From: Erysipelotrichaceae bacterium
Lineage (GTDB): Bacteria > Bacillota_I > Bacilli_A > Erysipelotrichales > Erysipelotrichaceae
Assembly (NCBI GenBank): GCA_003543215.1
Contig: DPJD01000001.1
Span: 326,188 to 390,187, forward strand
Length of the DNA stretch: 64,000 nt
Direction of reading: 5' to 3'
The notes under the pieces: model-generated
Told to the model about the DNA's origin: nothing
Database searches by the model: none
What the model saw: the letters and a program-made list of their open reading frames with translations, nothing else
Made by a program: the position numbers and the translations under genes
Shown: piece by piece, positions 7,682 through 51,393 of the stretch
How the letters are laid out: the number at the start of each line of letters is the position of its first letter
Numbering within the stretch: the stretch's first letter is position 1

Positions 7682-7687
7682 CTAGAC

Positions 7688-7892
7688 ATAGCCAATGCTT
7701 AAGACATGATGATTGGTGCTTTGTACAGAGAGAAAGTGTTTGGTGCAAACTTTCCTGAGCTCAATTGATTACCACTTAAGGGGTGGATTCATGAAAGAAT
7801 CCCGTTTGATCGACGTTAGCGATGAGTGCAAAGCATTTGCTTTGAATTAAGGTGGTACCGCGAGAATCTCGTCCTTTGGATGGGATTTTTTT
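7688..7892 (+). promoter_or_regulatory. T-box riboswitch leader (threonine, ACC specifier) with terminator
   Basis: AGAGA and GGTGCAA stem I elements. ACC followed by A at 7771-7774. T-box AAGGTGGTACCGCG at 7849-7862. Terminator GAGAATCTCGTCC/GGATGGGATTTTT plus U-run at 7862-7892. Confidence 0.8.
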
Positions 7893-37566: not shown

Positions 37567-39277
37567 AATCATTGAGTTTAGAATTCACAAAATCCAAGAC
37601 TTCATCGATGTTCACCAGTTGAACATCTTTTTCATTGCGTAACTTGACTTCAACTTGTCCGTTCTCAATCGTTTTACCTACCGTGATTCGTACAGGTACA
37701 CCAATCAAGTCCATATCATTGAATTTAACCCCAGCACGCTCGTCTCGATCATCCAAGATGACATCGACTTTTGCTTTTTGAAGTTGTGTATAAAGACTGT
37801 TTGCTAAATCGTTCTGAGCTTCTACCTTGGTGTTGATCACAACGATCGCCACTTGGTAAGGCGCAACTTCCTTTGGCCATACGATGCCAAAATCATCATG
37901 GTGTTGTTCGACGATGGCAGCCATGCATCGACCAGGACCAATACCATAAGATCCCATAATGACCGGATTGAGTTGATTGTTTTTATCCAAGTAGTTTAAG
38001 CCCAAAGCTTTTGCATACTTGTCGCCAAGTTTGAAGATATTGCCGATTTCAATCCCTTTTGAGAATGTGATGCGTCCTTCGTTACACTTCGGACAGACAT
38101 CGCCTTCCTTGATATTGCGAATATCAGCGAAGGTGTGAACTTTGAAATCGGAGAGGTTGACGTTTTTGAGGTGATAGTCGGATTTGTTGGCCCCAACCAA
38201 GAAATTGGACATCGATTTGATGCGTAGATCGGCGATGACTTTGAGCGTTGTGTTCACAGGACCTGCGAATCCTACTTTGGCATTGGTCAAACGAACCACA
38301 TCATCATTCTCTGCCAAGACAACCGTTTGTGCATTGAAGAGCTTTTGGAGTTTGACTTCATTGATCTCATCATCACTACGAACCATGATCAGATAGAATT
38401 CATCATCGATCTTGTAGATCATGGATTTGGTCATCTTCTCGAGGGGAATGTTGTAGTTATCGACCAAGTCTTTGATTTTACCAACATTTGGGGTATAGAG
38501 TTCTTCCAGTGTCATTGGAACTTCAAGTTCCAATGGCACTTCTACACACTCCGCAACTTCCAAATTGGATGCATAATCACAGTGATCACACAAAACCAAA
38601 GTATCTTCACCGATATCGGTTACGGCTTGGAACTCTTCAGAGAGAAGACCCCCCATGACACCGGTATCCGCACGTACGACTTTATAATCCAAGCCCATAC
38701 GATCGAAGGAATTGCGATACGCTTTATCCATCTTGCGATAGGAGACTTCCAAACCATCCAAATCCGCATCAAAGGAATACGCATCCTTCATGATGAATTC
38801 ACGCACACGGATCAAACCGAAACGAGGACGCGGTTCATCTCTGAACTTGGTTTGAAATTGGTAGATATTGAAAGGGAGATCCTTATAGGACTTCACATTG
38901 CTTTGTGCTGCCATCAAGAATAATTCTTCATGGGTAGGACCTAAGACGAAAGGTTTACCAAAACGATCCTTTAAAGAAAACATACTGGAGCCGATCAAAG
39001 CACGACGTCCACTTTGCTCATAAATTTCTTCTGGAATCAAAGCAGGCATCAAGACTTCTTGTGCGCCACTGTTGTCCATTTCCTCACGGATGATCTTCTC
39101 GATCTTCTTAAGCACACGATAGCCTAAAGGAAGATACATATAGATACCGGAAGAATTCTTTTTGATCATCCCACTGCGAACAAGGAGATTGCCACTCAAG
39201 GAATCTTCATCTTTAACGTTCTCACGTAGGGTATAAAAATAGCTGTTTTTAAGTTTCATATCAGACCTCTGAATCAT
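37565..39277 (-). CDS. proS: Proline--tRNA ligase (bacterial type with INS editing domain)
   Basis: 570 aa. Class II motifs (FRDEPRPRFGLIRVREF, GSYGIGPGR). Insertion domain between motifs 2 and 3. Confidence 0.95.
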   Translation of the reverse strand: MIQRSDMKLKNSYFYTLRENVKDEDSLSGNLLVRSGMIKKNSSGIYMYLPLGYRVLKKIEKIIREEMDNSGAQEVLMPALIPEEIYEQSGRRALIGSSMFSLKDRFGKPFVLGPTHEELFLMAAQSNVKSYKDLPFNIYQFQTKFRDEPRPRFGLIRVREFIMKDAYSFDADLDGLEVSYRKMDKAYRNSFDRMGLDYKVVRADTGVMGGLLSEEFQAVTDIGEDTLVLCDHCDYASNLEVAECVEVPLELEVPMTLEELYTPNVGKIKDLVDNYNIPLEKMTKSMIYKIDDEFYLIMVRSDDEINEVKLQKLFNAQTVVLAENDDVVRLTNAKVGFAGPVNTTLKVIADLRIKSMSNFLVGANKSDYHLKNVNLSDFKVHTFADIRNIKEGDVCPKCNEGRITFSKGIEIGNIFKLGDKYAKALGLNYLDKNNQLNPVIMGSYGIGPGRCMAAIVEQHHDDFGIVWPKEVAPYQVAIVVINTKVEAQNDLANSLYTQLQKAKVDVILDDRDERAGVKFNDMDLIGVPVRITVGKTIENGQVEVKLRNEKDVQLVNIDEVLDFVNSKLND

Positions 39278-39453
39278 TTGGTATTATAGCATATTCACAA
39301 GACTGTGAAAGGGTGTATTGCTTGTTAGACAAAACGAAAATGACATGAAAATAGCATATTTTCATTGAATCGGACTGTTAATCCATTGTTTTTGGTGTAA
39401 AATGAGATTAAAGAATTGTTATCACAATAATGACAACAGAAAGAGGCACAAAC

Positions 39454-40263
39454 ATGTTTGAAGAGCTTATGCATGCATCCTTTGATGGGACCCTTTTACG
39501 TCTGCGAAAAGACAAGGTAGACAACCCAAAAGCTATCGTCGTCATCGCCCATGGCCTATGTGAACACTTGAACCGCTATGACTATGTCACAGAACAACTC
39601 AATGCGAATGGTTTCAGTGTGTATCGCTACGATCAACGTGGACATGGCAAGTCGGAAGGTGCGAAGGTATTCTTCAGTGACTATAAAGAAATGGCAGAGG
39701 ACTGCAACAGTGTGTTCAATTTGGCAGCGCTTGAGAATCCAAGCTCAAAGATTTTCATCTTAGGACACAGCATGGGAGGTGAAACCGTAAGTTTATTTGG
39801 AACACTCTTTCCAAAGCATGCGGATGGTTTCATCCTATCGGGTGCTTTGACTCGCTATAACAACCCTCTGATGGGCAAAGATTTCCCCATTCCAGCACCT
39901 GTTGATCAGTATGTAGAAAACGGTTTGAGTGATGGCGTCTGCAGCGATCCTGCGGTTGTGGAAGCGTATGTGAAGGATCCCTTGGTTGAGAAGAAGATCT
40001 CCATTGGTCTAATCAATGAAATCTATAAAGCTGTGCAGTTTCTAAAAGAACACCCACAGGACTTTGTGGATCCTGTGCTTATCTTGCATGGGGCAAATGA
40101 TGGTTTGGTTTCCTATAAAGATTCTTTGACTTTCTTTGATGAAATCGCATCCGAAGATAAAGGTCTTCAGATTTATCCAAAACTCTTTCATGAAATCTTG
40201 AACGAACCGACGAAAGACGAAGTCATCGCCGATATCGTGTTGTGGCTCAATAAACATCTATAG
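39454..40263 (+). CDS. Alpha/beta hydrolase (lysophospholipase / monoacylglycerol lipase-like)
   Basis: GHSMGG nucleophile elbow, HG oxyanion motif, C-terminal LFHEILNE His motif. Confidence 0.8.
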   Translation: MFEELMHASFDGTLLRLRKDKVDNPKAIVVIAHGLCEHLNRYDYVTEQLNANGFSVYRYDQRGHGKSEGAKVFFSDYKEMAEDCNSVFNLAALENPSSKIFILGHSMGGETVSLFGTLFPKHADGFILSGALTRYNNPLMGKDFPIPAPVDQYVENGLSDGVCSDPAVVEAYVKDPLVEKKISIGLINEIYKAVQFLKEHPQDFVDPVLILHGANDGLVSYKDSLTFFDEIASEDKGLQIYPKLFHEILNEPTKDEVIADIVLWLNKHL

Positions 40264-40523
40264 TTTTAAATAAAAATGGGAATAATGGATTATATCGACA
40301 AACTACACAACGCCAGCATCTAATCCATTAAAACAATACGCTTAGAACCTAATGTTTAAAAACCGAATTAAGCAGAGTCTTACTTAGGTATAAGGCGAAT
40401 ATCGTCTCACTCGTTCCACTTATGTTTAATGATAATGATATCAGTGGCTGTTGTATCTTCAGAAGTAGCTCATTTGCGTGGGTTGAAAGTACATTGAAAT
40501 TGAACTTTATCTCAAGTGATGAA

Positions 40524-40552
40524 TTGACTGATAAACCCGACTAGGGTATTAT
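40524..40552 (+). promoter_or_regulatory. Near-consensus sigma-A promoter driving the repeat RNA and toxin
   Basis: TTGACT (40524-29), exactly 17 nt, TATTAT (40547-52). Confidence 0.6.
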
Positions 40553-40565
40553 ACTAGTACAAGAA

Positions 40566-40665
40566 TTCAAATGGTTGTCGCTCCCTGATATGCGACTTAT
40601 AAATGGTCAGGTTCAAATGTCTGTCGCTTCTCGATATGCGACTCAAAAGAGATCGAGTTCTAATT
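40566..40665 (+). ncRNA. Putative type III antitoxin RNA (ToxI/CptI-like): 2 full 46-nt direct repeats plus the start of a third
   Basis: Repeat 1 is 40566-40611 and repeat 2 is 40612-40657. They match at 34/46 overall and 27/32 over the first 32 nt. Each starts TTCAAATG and carries a GTCGC-10nt-GCGAC hairpin. TTCTAAT at 40658 begins a third unit. Confidence 0.6.
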
Positions 40666-40668
40666 TTT

Positions 40669-40705
40669 AGGCTCTAGCCATCATAAGCTAGAGCCTTATC
40701 TTTAT
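40669..40705 (+). terminator. Intrinsic terminator between repeat RNA and toxin ORF
   Basis: AGGCTCTAGC-8 nt-GCTAGAGCCT (10-bp stem) followed by TATCTTTATT. Confidence 0.65.
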
Positions 40706-40715
40706 TGAGGGAAAC

Positions 40716-41207
40716 ATGGACATTGGTAAATTCTATTTTTTGAGTAATGCATATTTAGAAGCGTTTAATGATTTGTTTTTAATGAAAAATAGCGAAGAGA
40801 TAAACGGAGATGAGCATAATCGTCCTTGTTTCTTTGCATTTCAAGACTTCAATACACACCTTTATTGGGTGATTCCCATCTCTTCAAAAACAAAGAAATT
40901 CCAAAAGATTTATGATGATAAAGTAATGCGGAATGGTTATTGCGACACCATTGTTTTTGGCGAAGTACTTGGACATAGGAAAGTATTCTTAATTCAAAAC
41001 ATGTGCCCAATATTACCAATGTACTTTGAAAACGAATATCTAGATCCACTTTCACATCAACCCGTTCGATTGAATGGCGTTACAGAACGTGAGATCATCT
41101 CCAAAGCAAAGAAAGTTCTCGCTTTGCATAGAAAAGGAATAAAGCTAATTTTCCCAGATGTCCTCTCGATTGAGAAGCAAATACTTTATTCAGTTCGTTC
41201 CGATTAA
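40716..41207 (+). CDS. Type III toxin-antitoxin system toxin, ToxN/AbiQ/CptN-like endoribonuclease
   Basis: KFYFLSNAYLEAF, NRPCFFAF, YWVIPISSKTKKF and FLIQNMCPI fit the ToxN/AbiQ pattern (FY..s..Yi.yL, RPy.g, aPLSS.K, iN.nnMIPv). 163 aa, RBS GAGGG. Confidence 0.7.
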   Translation: MDIGKFYFLSNAYLEAFNDLFLMKNSEEINGDEHNRPCFFAFQDFNTHLYWVIPISSKTKKFQKIYDDKVMRNGYCDTIVFGEVLGHRKVFLIQNMCPILPMYFENEYLDPLSHQPVRLNGVTEREIISKAKKVLALHRKGIKLIFPDVLSIEKQILYSVRSD

Positions 41208-41290
41208 GAATCATTTGACAACAATAAGTTTTAATGATTAAATGAACAAGTTGATATCGGTATTTATCGATGAGCGTCATCGCACTGCGT

Positions 41291-41319
41291 TTGACACACA
41301 TAGATAACTATGCTATATT
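41291..41319 (+). promoter_or_regulatory. Strong sigma-A promoter of the infC-rpmI-rplT operon
   Basis: TTGACA (41291-96), 17 nt ending in TGc, TATATT (41314-19). Confidence 0.65.
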
Positions 41320-41325
41320 AAACAA

Positions 41326-41454
41326 GCAATAAACGTGGAAAGAAGAAGTTCCTGCTTCTCACCCGATGGCTTAAGTCATGGGTATCGTGCTACAAATGGT
41401 TATTTTCTATGAACCAAGTACATTTAGCGGGACCTTTGTGCCCGCTTTTATATT
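41326..41454 (+). promoter_or_regulatory. Ribosomal protein L20 leader (transcription attenuator) upstream of infC
   Basis: A leader of about 105 nt ends in the hairpin AGCGGG...CCCGCT plus TTTATATT (41426-41454), immediately before the infC RBS. The position matches the Firmicute L20 leader. The aptamer itself was not verified. Confidence 0.45.
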
Positions 41455-41470
41455 GTAAGGAGGTATATTT

Positions 41471-42004
41471 ATAACTAATAAGAAACCCAATAAGTCAGAC
41501 GAACTCGTAAATGAAAACATCCGTTTCAAAGAAGTGCTTGTCATTGGTCCCAATGGTGAACAACTGGGCGTAAAAATGCGCCGTGAAGCCTTGGAAATCG
41601 CCTATGAGTATGAAATGGATCTCTTCTGTGTGGCTCCTCAAGGAAACCCGCCTGTCTGCAAGATTCTTGATTACGGAAAGTACCGTTTTGAACTGCAGAA
41701 GAAGACAAAAGAAGCGAAGAAGAACCAACATGTTACTGAAGTTAAGCCACTTCGTCTCTCACCGGTCATTGATAAACATGATTTCGACACCAAGTTGAAA
41801 CATGCTCGTGAATGGTTGGAAGATGGAATGAAGGTTAAACTCGACATGCGTTTTAGAGGTCGTATGATGACAAGAATCGAAGTTGGTCAGAAGATCATGA
41901 ACGATTTCATTCAAGAAGTGTCCGACCTTGCGGCGGTTGACAAACCTGCCATTATGGAAGGTAGAACCCTAAGTTTGGTTCTCAATCCAAAGAAGACTAA
42001 GTAA
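41471..42004 (+). CDS. infC: Translation initiation factor IF-3, with non-canonical ATA start
   Basis: In-frame stop at 41456-58. AAGGAGG at 41457-63, then 7 nt to ATA at 41471. The product ...ELVNENIRFKEVLVIGPNGEQLGV is the conserved IF-3 N-terminus lying upstream of the first GTG/ATG. Confidence 0.85.
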   Translation: MTNKKPNKSDELVNENIRFKEVLVIGPNGEQLGVKMRREALEIAYEYEMDLFCVAPQGNPPVCKILDYGKYRFELQKKTKEAKKNQHVTEVKPLRLSPVIDKHDFDTKLKHAREWLEDGMKVKLDMRFRGRMMTRIEVGQKIMNDFIQEVSDLAAVDKPAIMEGRTLSLVLNPKKTK

Positions 42005-42016
42005 GAGGAGAGCATC

Positions 42017-42211
42017 ATGCCAAAAATGAAGACAAAAAAGGCTTTGGCAAAACGTGTCAAAGTAACGGGTAGTGGTAAACTGAAACGCTCACATGCGTAT
42101 GTATCCCACTTTGCGGCCAACAAATCGCATAAACAAAAAAGAAATTTACGCAAATCAACATTGGTTCACGGTACGGATTACAAACGTATCAAGTTGATGT
42201 TACAGAAGTAG
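42017..42211 (+). CDS. rpmI: 50S ribosomal protein L35
   Basis: [24 protein letters not shown]; 64 aa. Confidence 0.95.
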
Positions 42212-42221
42212 GAGAATTGAA

Positions 42222-42587
42222 ATGCCAAGAGTAAAAAATTCGGTCGCGACACGTGCACGTCGTAAGGCCATCTTAAAACTTGCAAAGGGTTACTTTGGAA
42301 GTAAGCACACGATTTACAAAACAGCGCATGAACAAGTCATGCACTCCCTCAAATACGCTTACAGAGATCGTCGTCAACTAAAGCGCGAAATGCGCAAATT
42401 GTGGATCGCTCGTGTCAATGCGGCAGCTCGCATGAATGACATCAGCTATTCCAAATTGATGCATGGTTTGAAGTTGGCTGATATCCAAGTCAACCGTAAG
42501 ATGTTATCTGAAATGGCGATTCATGATCCTAAAGGATTTGTGACAATCGTTGAAAAAGCTAAAAAAGCTTTGGACAAAGCAGAATAA
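42222..42587 (+). CDS. rplT: 50S ribosomal protein L20
   Basis: [26 protein letters not shown]; 121 aa. Confidence 0.95.
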
Positions 42588-42609
42588 GAAAGCCTTCGGG
42601 CTTTTTTTA
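42588..42609 (+). terminator. Intrinsic terminator after rplT
   Basis: AAAGCC-ttcg-GGCTTT followed by TTTTAT. Confidence 0.75.
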
Positions 42610-42624
42610 TTATATGATGATGGT

Positions 42625-43617
42625 ATGAACACCTATTTAAGCTGTATTGAAATCGCCCATCGCATCAGTAAACTGAAACCTTGGTTACAGTTTCATGATC
42701 TCGATTTCTTTGAAATCAAAGCCTATGGTCAAGATAGCATCTATGTATCTGTCATGGGTCATGCGAAGAATACTTACGGTCTTTGTTTTTACTTTGGAAA
42801 CAAAGCTTTTAATGAACTCTTATATTTAGTCGAGAACCCAGAGCTTCCCAATCTTCAAAAAGCACGTTACCAAGATGCCTTAGTTGTTTATTTTAATAAA
42901 AAAGAAGAGCTTGGGGATGAAGATCTTGCCTTGATTGATGCTTCGAATATAAAGCTGACACGGACACAACGTTATCCCGTCTTGCGCAACGTGCACAAGA
43001 ACTATCCTGGTTTACTCACTGAAGTTGAAGCTGAACAGCTTCATGAAGCCTTGATGAACTTTGAGAAAGCCTTGCTTAGATACAACATCAAAAAACCTGT
43101 GGTGGACTTTGAATTCGATGAATTCCTATCTTTTCGTGAAAGTAAGAATGGCGTCTGGAGCTTACGTGTCCGTGAAGTGGACTACGATGATTTCGATTTT
43201 CCTGAACCCAAGTTTGATTTCTTTGAAGTTAGAAACATCAATCCAAGACGCTTTGGCCAACAAATCGAAATCGACACACCTCTGCTTAATGCATTGATGC
43301 GTGAAGATACCAAACAGCCTTATTTGATTCGAGCCCTTGTGATCATTGGGGTTGATGATGCACATGTTTATAAATACCAAATCTTAGATAAGCATGCGGA
43401 CATCACACAAGTTTATGTGGAAGCACTTATTGAATTTGTGGAAGAATTTGGTCGACCTGAAGCCATCATCGTTCGTGATATCGAAGCCGCTAATGCCATG
43501 GATCAAATTGCCGCCATGATTCAAACACCTCTAGCTGTCTTCAGTGAACTCGTCAGTATCGATGATTTCAATGATGGGCTTAAAGAATTCAAGCAGTCCA
43601 ATACACGATTCAACTAA
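42625..43617 (+). CDS. Hypothetical protein (330 aa)
   Basis: MNTYLSCIEIAHR start lies downstream of the rplT terminator. The longer ORF from 42550 runs through rplT and the terminator. No motif recognised. Confidence 0.5.
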   Translation: MNTYLSCIEIAHRISKLKPWLQFHDLDFFEIKAYGQDSIYVSVMGHAKNTYGLCFYFGNKAFNELLYLVENPELPNLQKARYQDALVVYFNKKEELGDEDLALIDASNIKLTRTQRYPVLRNVHKNYPGLLTEVEAEQLHEALMNFEKALLRYNIKKPVVDFEFDEFLSFRESKNGVWSLRVREVDYDDFDFPEPKFDFFEVRNINPRRFGQQIEIDTPLLNALMREDTKQPYLIRALVIIGVDDAHVYKYQILDKHADITQVYVEALIEFVEEFGRPEAIIVRDIEAANAMDQIAAMIQTPLAVFSELVSIDDFNDGLKEFKQSNTRFN

Positions 43618-51216: not shown

Positions 51217-51256
51217 TTCTTGCATACAAATAAAAAATATGTTTTAATTTTGAAGA

Positions 51257-51393
51257 CTTATCAAGAGCTGGGGTAGAGAATTAGCTCAACAACCCCACAC
51301 CAACCTACAGCGATGCAAGGTGGTACTGCTAATCCACGATAAGGGATCCAACATTTCAATGTGAAGCCCTGTCGTGTGCAGGGCTTTTGTTTA
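51257..51393 (+). promoter_or_regulatory. SAM-I (S-box) riboswitch with terminator, divergent in the P2 region
   Basis: P1 CTTATC (51257-62) pairs with GATAAG (51338-43). AAGAG junction, GGGGT/ACCCC P2, ACCAACC and GCTAATCC conserved boxes. Terminator AAGCCCTG...CAGGGCTT plus T-run at 51364-51393. metK lies downstream. Confidence 0.65.

Follow-up and report, generated by a model that had tools for sequence, protein, structure and literature searches.

The closest described relatives of the locus analyzed here are the CptIN type III toxin-antitoxin systems, for which published loci have repeats of 40 to 48 nucleotides (nt) in 1.9 to 3.4 copies and are chromosomal; the 2012 survey found no plasmid-borne cptIN and was unable to align the RNAs (PMC3401426). 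In the crystallized system of Eubacterium rectale, CptIN_Er (PDB 4RMO; Rao et al. 2015, PMC4627078), toxin and RNA form a 2:2 complex, nucleotide A45 of the CptI_Er unit bears a 2',3'-cyclic phosphate, and Asp81 and Ser85 of CptN_Er recognize the scissile adenine (PMC4627078). Here we describe a cptIN locus at positions 40524 to 41207 of a 64,000-nt stretch of contig DPJD01000001.1 (Erysipelotrichaceae bacterium, assembly GCA_003543215.1); the whole stretch is referred to as the window, and a preliminary description made from its sequence alone had already proposed a type III locus at this position. We consider the locus, with a probability of roughly 0.88, to be a CptIN type III toxin-antitoxin cassette that is complete and maintained by selection. 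It is a functional-looking CptIN and one more chromosomal cassette in an Erysipelotrichaceae-like genome, with nothing new in kind. Its repeat length, copy number and toxin size all fell within the published cptIN ranges, and all four of the locus features used by Blower et al. 2012 (toxin homologue, terminator, tandem repeats and promoter) were present (PMC3401426).

The CptN toxin and the CptI pseudoknot

The open reading frame (ORF) at 40716 to 41207 (stop codon included), here cptN, can firmly be assigned to the CptN toxin family, with a MazF/Kid-like fold in which helices surround a twisted beta-sheet core. Its 163-amino-acid product matched the NCBIfam equivalog NF047359 (type III toxin-antitoxin system CptIN family toxin) at 188.1 bits against a cutoff of 90 (E = 7.8e-56), with residues 4 to 155 aligning to profile positions 1 to 149 of 150, and the only significant match in a PDB sequence search was 4RMO, the CptN of E. 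rectale (E = 8.4e-19). When an AlphaFold2 model of the ORF (mean predicted local distance difference test score, 85.7; predicted template modeling score, 0.81) was used as a Foldseek query, 4RMO_A ranked first (E = 4e-11; template modeling [TM] scores, 0.80/0.84), and far weaker matches to MazF/MoxT (E of about 1e-3; TMq, 0.44 to 0.46) and to AbiQ (4GLK; E = 1.4e-3; TM, 0.61) occupied lower ranks. A large protein collection held 775 homologues, several of which are named CptIN family toxin by NCBI. The preliminary description had judged the locus closest to CptIN of Firmicutes, and the profile, sequence and structure matches bear this out. It had also called the ORF a ToxN/AbiQ-type endoribonuclease: by sequence this was ruled out, because a Pfam scan gave no match at E ≤ 10, ToxN_toxin (PF13958) included, and what survives is a fold-level kinship with AbiQ.

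Residue conservation was called from a 22-sequence alignment of the subclade. Residues S56, S57, R36 and Y108 align with S51, S52, R30 and Y104 of the E. rectale protein; S57, R36 and Y108 were invariant and S56 was at least 90% conserved, and the intact window ORF has retained all residues that do not vary in the alignment. The active site of CptN_Er comprises a Ser-Ser-Arg triad and Tyr104 (PMC4627078). K58 stands in place of E. rectale R53, a correspondence taken from the sequence alignment; the papers give no residue numbers for the triad.

Upstream of the toxin gene, a gap-free repeat finder identified two direct repeats of 46 nt each (40566 to 40611 and 40612 to 40657) that are 74% identical (34/46 positions, so that 12/46 differ); a recount also reproduced the 27/32 identity of the first 32 nt, and of the five differences there, two precede the stem and three fall in its loop. 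The array extends from 40566 to 40664, comprising both units and the start of a third, about 2.2 copies. By direct count this was the sole tandem pair with a period of 40 to 50 nt and at least 74% identity across the 64-kb window, and no such pair arose in 100 first-order Markov simulations of it. Tandem Repeats Finder, run with default-like scoring and a minimum score of 30, did not detect the repeats because the units are only 74% identical.

Both units can be drawn as an H-type pseudoknot. In the register of the predicted processed RNA, unit 1 spans 40570 to 40615 (46 nt, 3' tail UUCA), with stem 1 at 40577-40581/40592-40596, stem 2 at 40584-40589 (CCUGAU)/40606-40611 (GUCAGG) and a 9-nt A-rich loop L2, UUAUAAAUG, at 40597-40605. 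Unit 2 spans 40616 to 40661 (46 nt, 3' tail UUCU), with stem 1 at 40623-40627/40638-40642, stem 2 at 40630-40635 (CUCGAU)/40652-40657 (AUCGAG) and a 9-nt loop L2, UCAAAAGAG, at 40643-40651. The stem-1 arms GUCGC/GCGAC occur in both repeats and had been read previously as a simple hairpin; that stem stands, but stem 2 had been overlooked and the RNA is a pseudoknot. The three differences placed in the hairpin loop do lie there, yet two of them are stem-2 partners compensated on both sides: from unit 1 to unit 2, two stem-2 pairs changed on both strands of the helix (C-G to U-A and U-A to C-G), and a third went from U-G to U-A.

The same structure is apparent in a comparison with E. rectale. The unit in the crystal, AAGUUUACCACUGACCGAUAUGUGGUAUAUAAAUGGUCGGGUUGA (primer CptI-WT, PMC4627078), and window unit 1 in the same register, AAUGGUUGUCGCUCCCUGAUAUGCGACUUAUAAAUGGUCAGGUUCA, were identical at 32/46 positions with a single 1-nt indel. 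Where stem 1 differs, the difference is compensated (ACCAC/GUGGU in E. rectale, GUCGC/GCGAC in the window), a GAUAU motif is common to both, the window L2 matched its E. rectale counterpart, AUAUAAAUG, at 8/9 positions, and the 3' tails align without a gap (GUUGA^AAG and GUUCA^AAU, respectively). From this alignment the window RNA is predicted to be cut at UUCA^AAUG, one base 5' of the ToxN-style AA^AU site that had been proposed for the repeat boundaries. The cut-site context thus predicted, UUCA^AAUG, compares with UUGA^AAGU in E. rectale.

Covariation across related loci provides strong support for a CptI here in the form of an H-type pseudoknot equivalent to CptI_Er, as judged from the alignment of 120 distinct units from 79 loci by MAFFT, which is blind to structure. 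Standard pairs formed in 98.8% of the 1320 stem cells, compared with 20 to 37% in a control in which the 3' partners were slid by 1 to 3 columns; double compensatory changes, on both sides of a pair, were seen at 8 of the 11 pairs (98 cells), and in none of 500 shuffles did the pairing, the covariation score or the count of compensated pairs come up to the observed values. An Rfam scan of 39000 to 43000 at E ≤ 10 placed no family, ToxI and related models included, on the repeats or anywhere in 40559 to 40706. The locus had been called unannotated, which holds for the RNA, having no Rfam match, but not for the toxin, which NCBI would name through NF047359.

Layout and conservation of the cassette

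All features of the cassette lie on the + strand, and the promoter, repeats, terminator, Shine-Dalgarno sequence and ORF were each recovered, in the sequence and in promoter, terminator and repeat scans, where the preliminary description had placed them. A predicted sigma-70-type promoter at 40524 to 40552 (-35 TTGACT at 40524-40529, a 17-nt spacer, -10 TATTAT at 40547-40552) agrees with the consensus at 10/12 positions in a promoter scan, and we infer that it drives a single cptI-cptN transcript starting near 40559. A short 5' leader (40559 to 40569) would run up to the first of the predicted cuts, after 40569 within UUCA^AAUG, and is followed by the two units. The intrinsic terminator (40669 to 40706) consists of a 10-bp stem with 6 G-C pairs and an 8-nt loop (40669-40696) and then an interrupted T tract, TATCTTTATT; it was the one terminator site found in the 1.5 kb scanned. 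Such terminators have an established role in type III systems (PMC3401426, PMC5086642), and by analogy this one is probably leaky and would set an excess of antitoxin RNA over toxin mRNA. The Shine-Dalgarno sequence GAGGG (40707 to 40711) lies 4 nt 5' of the ATG of cptN. A search of the 64-kb window found no second RNA or toxin copy elsewhere in it.

A one-genome-per-species scan yielded 341 loci with relatives, of which the best 80 were examined. Two tandem units of 45 to 47 nt were present upstream of the toxin gene in 79 loci, so the repeats are conserved upstream of orthologues, as had been expected of a genuine antitoxin array; outside the 79 were L071, whose contig was too short for the upstream region, and L049, a three-copy 47-nt array unscored by the consensus scan. 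A promoter matching at least 9/12 positions, mostly TTGACA-17-TATACT or TATAAT, stood at a nearly fixed distance in 77/79 loci, and a Shine-Dalgarno-like motif lay at most 18 nt from the start codon in 73/79. Between repeats and gene, a strict stem search found a stem of 7 bp or more and, after it, a T-rich tract in 66/79 loci, and one was visible in nearly all; this explicit search superseded a cruder test (whole-tail minimum free energy [MFE] plus T count) that had scored 31/79. The order of promoter, two units, UCAAAUG, terminator, Shine-Dalgarno motif and toxin was kept in 79 of 80 genome loci and in many viral contigs. Most loci have the boundary motif YUCA^AAU ahead of the first unit, and UUCAAAUG, the site at which the last unit would be processed at its 3' end, was conserved in 76/79. 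The TTCTAAT previously taken for the start of a truncated third unit is indeed present, but as the window's version of that last processing site and not as a decayed repeat.

The two units of a locus are almost never identical. They differed by at least one compensated stem change in 67/79 loci, and between-unit stem differences amounted to 118 compensated events against 24 lost pairs. The third pair of stem 1 was U-A in unit 1 and C-G in unit 2 in 61/79 loci; the window belongs to the minority, its units differing at stem 2. These patterns imply a long-maintained, position-specific divergence of the two repeats. Non-identity may limit misfolding between units or recombinational collapse of the array, the former suggested because the identical stem-1 arms of the window precursor pair between units in a nested fold. 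A stronger version, in which the units are kept deliberately different for an obligate hetero-RNA complex with one copy of each RNA or for distinct jobs, and in which unit 2 of the window and of its relative L001 would stay fused to the terminator or to the cptN leader and act in cis, appears improbable to us.

Selection was gauged against the closest genome locus, L001, from a metagenome-assembled genome of an uncultured Erysipelotrichaceae that shares the synteny of proS, hydrolase and cptIN. For cptN, the ratio of nonsynonymous to synonymous substitution rates (dN/dS) was 0.074 with synonymous sites saturated (dS 1.13), and the flanking hydrolase and proS genes gave 0.051 and 0.039, respectively. 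The noncoding stretch from promoter to ribosome-binding site was identical at 174/192 positions (91%), the promoter was unchanged, and unit 2 was identical at 46/46 bases, its UUCU tail included. Judged by these comparisons, toxin and RNA are both under purifying selection.

The cassette has the character of a compact module, self-contained and spread horizontally. It occurred in Bacillota, Veillonella and Oceanotoga in very different genomic contexts, and the window CptN shares 55 to 64% identity with hundreds of proteins in its subclade; eleven Veillonella loci were among the best 80, and the 2012 list includes a cptIN locus of Veillonella atypica (PMC3401426). A Pfam census of 116 flanking proteins from the 80 loci revealed no conserved partner gene (176 families, each in at most 4), and a few genome loci had McrBC, Fic, integrase or terminase genes as neighbours. 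Relatives with full cassettes were found on 59 IMG/VR viral or prophage contigs, and no match to cptN was found among the 50,697 sequenced phage genomes of INPHARED. Two of the IMG/VR loci, L126 and L130, apparently have a single CptI unit between two UUCAAAU sites (upstream of the match at 1501). CptN relatives were also encoded by 7 PLSDB plasmids (e.g., NZ_CP075965.1, 9107-9586; Clostridium perfringens, Megamonas, Planococcus and others), all annotated as "hypothetical protein." The exact window protein recurred, with the same neighbours, in several Logan metagenome assemblies.

In the window, the cassette is flanked by a hydrolase gene on one side and by the infC-rpmI-rplT operon on the other. 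A 238-nt spacer (40284 to 40521) separates the hydrolase stop codon from the cptI promoter and contains short inverted repeats (40283-40295/40318-40330); it had no blastn similarity to its 464-nt counterpart in L001, whereas both flanks align at 86 to 90%. Downstream, the stretch from the cptN stop codon (41207) to the next promoter showed no terminator. That promoter, in the region 41291 to 41459, is strong and TG-extended (TTGACA-17-TATATT, 11/12), and after it comes, ahead of infC-rpmI-rplT, a ribosomal protein L20 leader (41334 to 41459; 50 bits, below the Rfam gathering score of 58.7). Downstream of rplT, and overlapping its end, the ORF at 42550 to 43617 encodes DUF7309 and DUF6930 domains; the gene call on an identical Logan contig starts later, giving 330 amino acids instead of the 355 of the ORF. 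Elsewhere in the window, a T-box leader (7686 to 7879; 104.6 bits) and a SAM-I/IV riboswitch aptamer (51253 to 51365; 43.2 bits) scored above their Rfam gathering thresholds. Within cptN, a weak antisense match to the Rfam family "SpF41" (29 bits; gathering score, 52) was regarded as fortuitous.

Proposed mechanism, contrary evidence and possible biological role

The mechanism with the most support is the one described for CptIN_Er (PMC4627078, PMC5086642), with the protein family and fold, the RNA homology to CptI_Er, the covarying pseudoknot, the layout and the purifying selection observed here, and with the cleavage position and chemistry, the stoichiometry of the complex, the leakiness of the terminator, and toxicity and its neutralization supplied by the family. 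The purifying selection on toxin and RNA and the compensated changes in the stems lend indirect support to toxicity and its neutralization by the cognate RNA. The single promoter would give rise to a precursor carrying two 46-nt CptI units; the hairpin terminator would stop most transcripts and let a minority continue into cptN, keeping the RNA more abundant than the toxin mRNA. CptN, as an endoribonuclease of MazF/Kid fold, would cut the precursor at UUCA^AAU boundaries, and each released unit would adopt an H-type pseudoknot with two stems of 5 to 6 bp and an A-rich loop 2. The single-stranded tails would fill the active-site groove of CptN, each pseudoknot bridging two toxins in a closed, inhibited ring. 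Were transcription to stop or the RNA to be degraded, free CptN would be expected to cleave cellular RNA at A-rich sites and so to cause growth arrest.

Several observations weigh against a complete and functional CptIN cassette at this locus. In addition to the absence of any Pfam family, no PADLOC model matched the 163-amino-acid ORF at E ≤ 10; this lack of support reflects gaps in the two libraries and is not evidence against the CptN assignment. The E. rectale residues Asp81 and Ser85 align with Leu85 and Lys89 (window 40968 to 40982), which are invariant in the subclade, and recognition of the cut site in this subclade may differ in detail from that in E. rectale. The last boundary of the window (40658 to 40664) reads UUCU^AAU in place of the family's UUCA^AAU, the scissile A being present in 76/79 loci and a U at that position occurring, among the 79, only in the window and in L001 (L001 2942 to 2948). 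The U is shared by both genomes in spite of saturated synonymous sites in cptN and so did not arise recently; UUCU at this boundary is tolerated or selected. The 3' end of unit 2 may not be released, and unit 2 may stay joined to the terminator. In addition, a nested-only MFE fold of the precursor paired the unit-1 GCGAC (3' arm of stem 1) with the unit-2 GUCGC (5' arm) (window 40577 to 40642) and did not form the pseudoknots; this inter-unit helix, a possible misfold permitted by identical stems, was put down to the limits of nested folding and not taken for the native fold, although it might hint at pressure from misfolding.

The same last boundary, together with repeats that differ at 12/46 positions, is what a decaying or inactive relic with diverged repeats, a mutated cut site and a disarmed toxin would lead one to expect. 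That explanation is nonetheless very improbable: the ORF is intact with every invariant residue in place, its dN/dS is 0.074, the stem differences between units are compensated and follow a family rule (67/79 loci), and unit 2 with its UUCU is the same in L001 despite the saturated synonymous sites. Purifying selection on both toxin and RNA argues against a relic. Hardly credible, too, is a role confined to cis, in which the repeats would serve the downstream ORF as leader, attenuator or operator instead of being an antitoxin that works in trans. The repeats do lie in a 5' leader right before a terminator, as in many riboregulators, and belong to no Rfam family, but they are homologous in sequence and pseudoknot to CptI_Er, a single 45-nt unit of which neutralizes its toxin in trans and is bound to the toxin in the crystal (PMC4627078).

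What a CptIN cassette does for its host is a separate matter. Abortive infection, the label given to the locus in the preliminary description, is established for no CptIN: two systems tested in Escherichia coli gave no protection against six coliphages, and CptIN_Er stabilized a plasmid (PMC3401426, PMC4627078). Defence and addiction are both possible roles. A selfish addiction or stabilization module without benefit to the host, loss of which would free a longer-lived toxin, is conceivable but doubtful. It would account for the rise in plasmid retention to 100% conferred by CptIN_Er in E. coli (PMC4627078, PMC5086642), for a self-contained unit of about 700 bp in varied contexts and distant taxa and on 7 plasmids, and for the retention of the cassette at the same site in two species at dS of about 0.4 to 1.1; a chromosomal toxin under purifying selection as strong as that seen here (dN/dS 0.074) is, however, also to be expected from a function that benefits the host. 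Phage defence by abortive infection, whereby a phage shutting off host transcription would exhaust the supply of CptI and so release CptN to kill the infected cell, seems to us on balance unlikely. ToxIN, AbiQ and TenpIN, of the same architecture and fold, do abort phages (PMC3401426, PMC5086642), and the viral or prophage contigs and the few loci adjoining McrBC, Fic, integrase or terminase genes point in the same direction. Against this stand the negative coliphage assays, the position of the window cassette outside any defence island, the heterogeneous neighbours across the 80 loci with no family recurring in more than 4, and the lack of a match in PADLOC or in the sequenced phage genomes.

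For a complete CptIN cassette, the RNA half is invisible to current pipelines: Rfam lacks a family for it, and the toxin is modelled in neither Pfam nor PADLOC. As a consequence, annotation of a locus such as that of the window yields, at best, an isolated "CptIN family toxin" or else a hypothetical protein. A covariation-supported consensus pseudoknot for the largest CptI subclade comes from the 120-unit alignment, which could seed an Rfam family.

Comparison with known systems

Among type II systems, MazF, Kid and CcdB share the core fold of the window toxin, and MazF and Kid its predicted endoribonuclease activity, but these are smaller proteins with a protein antitoxin and no repeat RNA. 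The ToxIN systems of Pectobacterium atrosepticum and Bacillus thuringiensis, and AbiQ, are nearer: a repeat RNA processed by the toxin into inhibitory pseudoknots and a terminator that sets the ratio of RNA to toxin, both predicted for the window locus, and a MazF/Kid-like fold are common to all, the resemblance to AbiQ (4GLK) being at the level of fold only and without similarity of sequence profiles. Unlike the two 46-nt units of the window, ToxI units are about 34 to 36 nt long, occur in 2.8 to 5.6 copies and form triplex pseudoknots in a 3:3 triangular complex, and the window repeats, 46 nt in 2 copies without an Rfam match, do not fit the ToxIN/AbiQ pattern (units of about 31 to 46 nt, mean 38, typically in 3 to 5.5 copies). 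ToxN cleaves at AA^AU, one base from the cut predicted here, and ToxIN and AbiQ, unlike any CptIN, have been shown to abort phage infection. TenpIN of Photorhabdus luminescens, likewise type III, resembles the window in having few, long repeats (39 to 57 nt, about 2 copies), yet its toxin belongs to another family, and only the CptIN model of NCBIfam matched the window ORF at E ≤ 10.

The comparison is closest with CptIN_Er (PDB 4RMO; Rao et al. 2015, PMC4627078). The two differ in that the window CptN is only about 29 to 35% identical to that of E. rectale and belongs to a large sister subclade, with L and K for D81 and S85. The window unit is 46 nt long instead of 45, its stem 2 can reach 6 bp, its two units are nonidentical with compensated stem-2 changes, and its last cut site has a U in place of the A. 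Both are chromosomal cassettes of Bacillota in which a promoter, about two repeats of 45 to 46 nt, a terminator and a toxin gene follow one another; their RNAs correspond base for base with one indel, as H-type pseudoknots with a 9-nt A-rich loop 2 and a boundary of the form ..GUUNA^AA...

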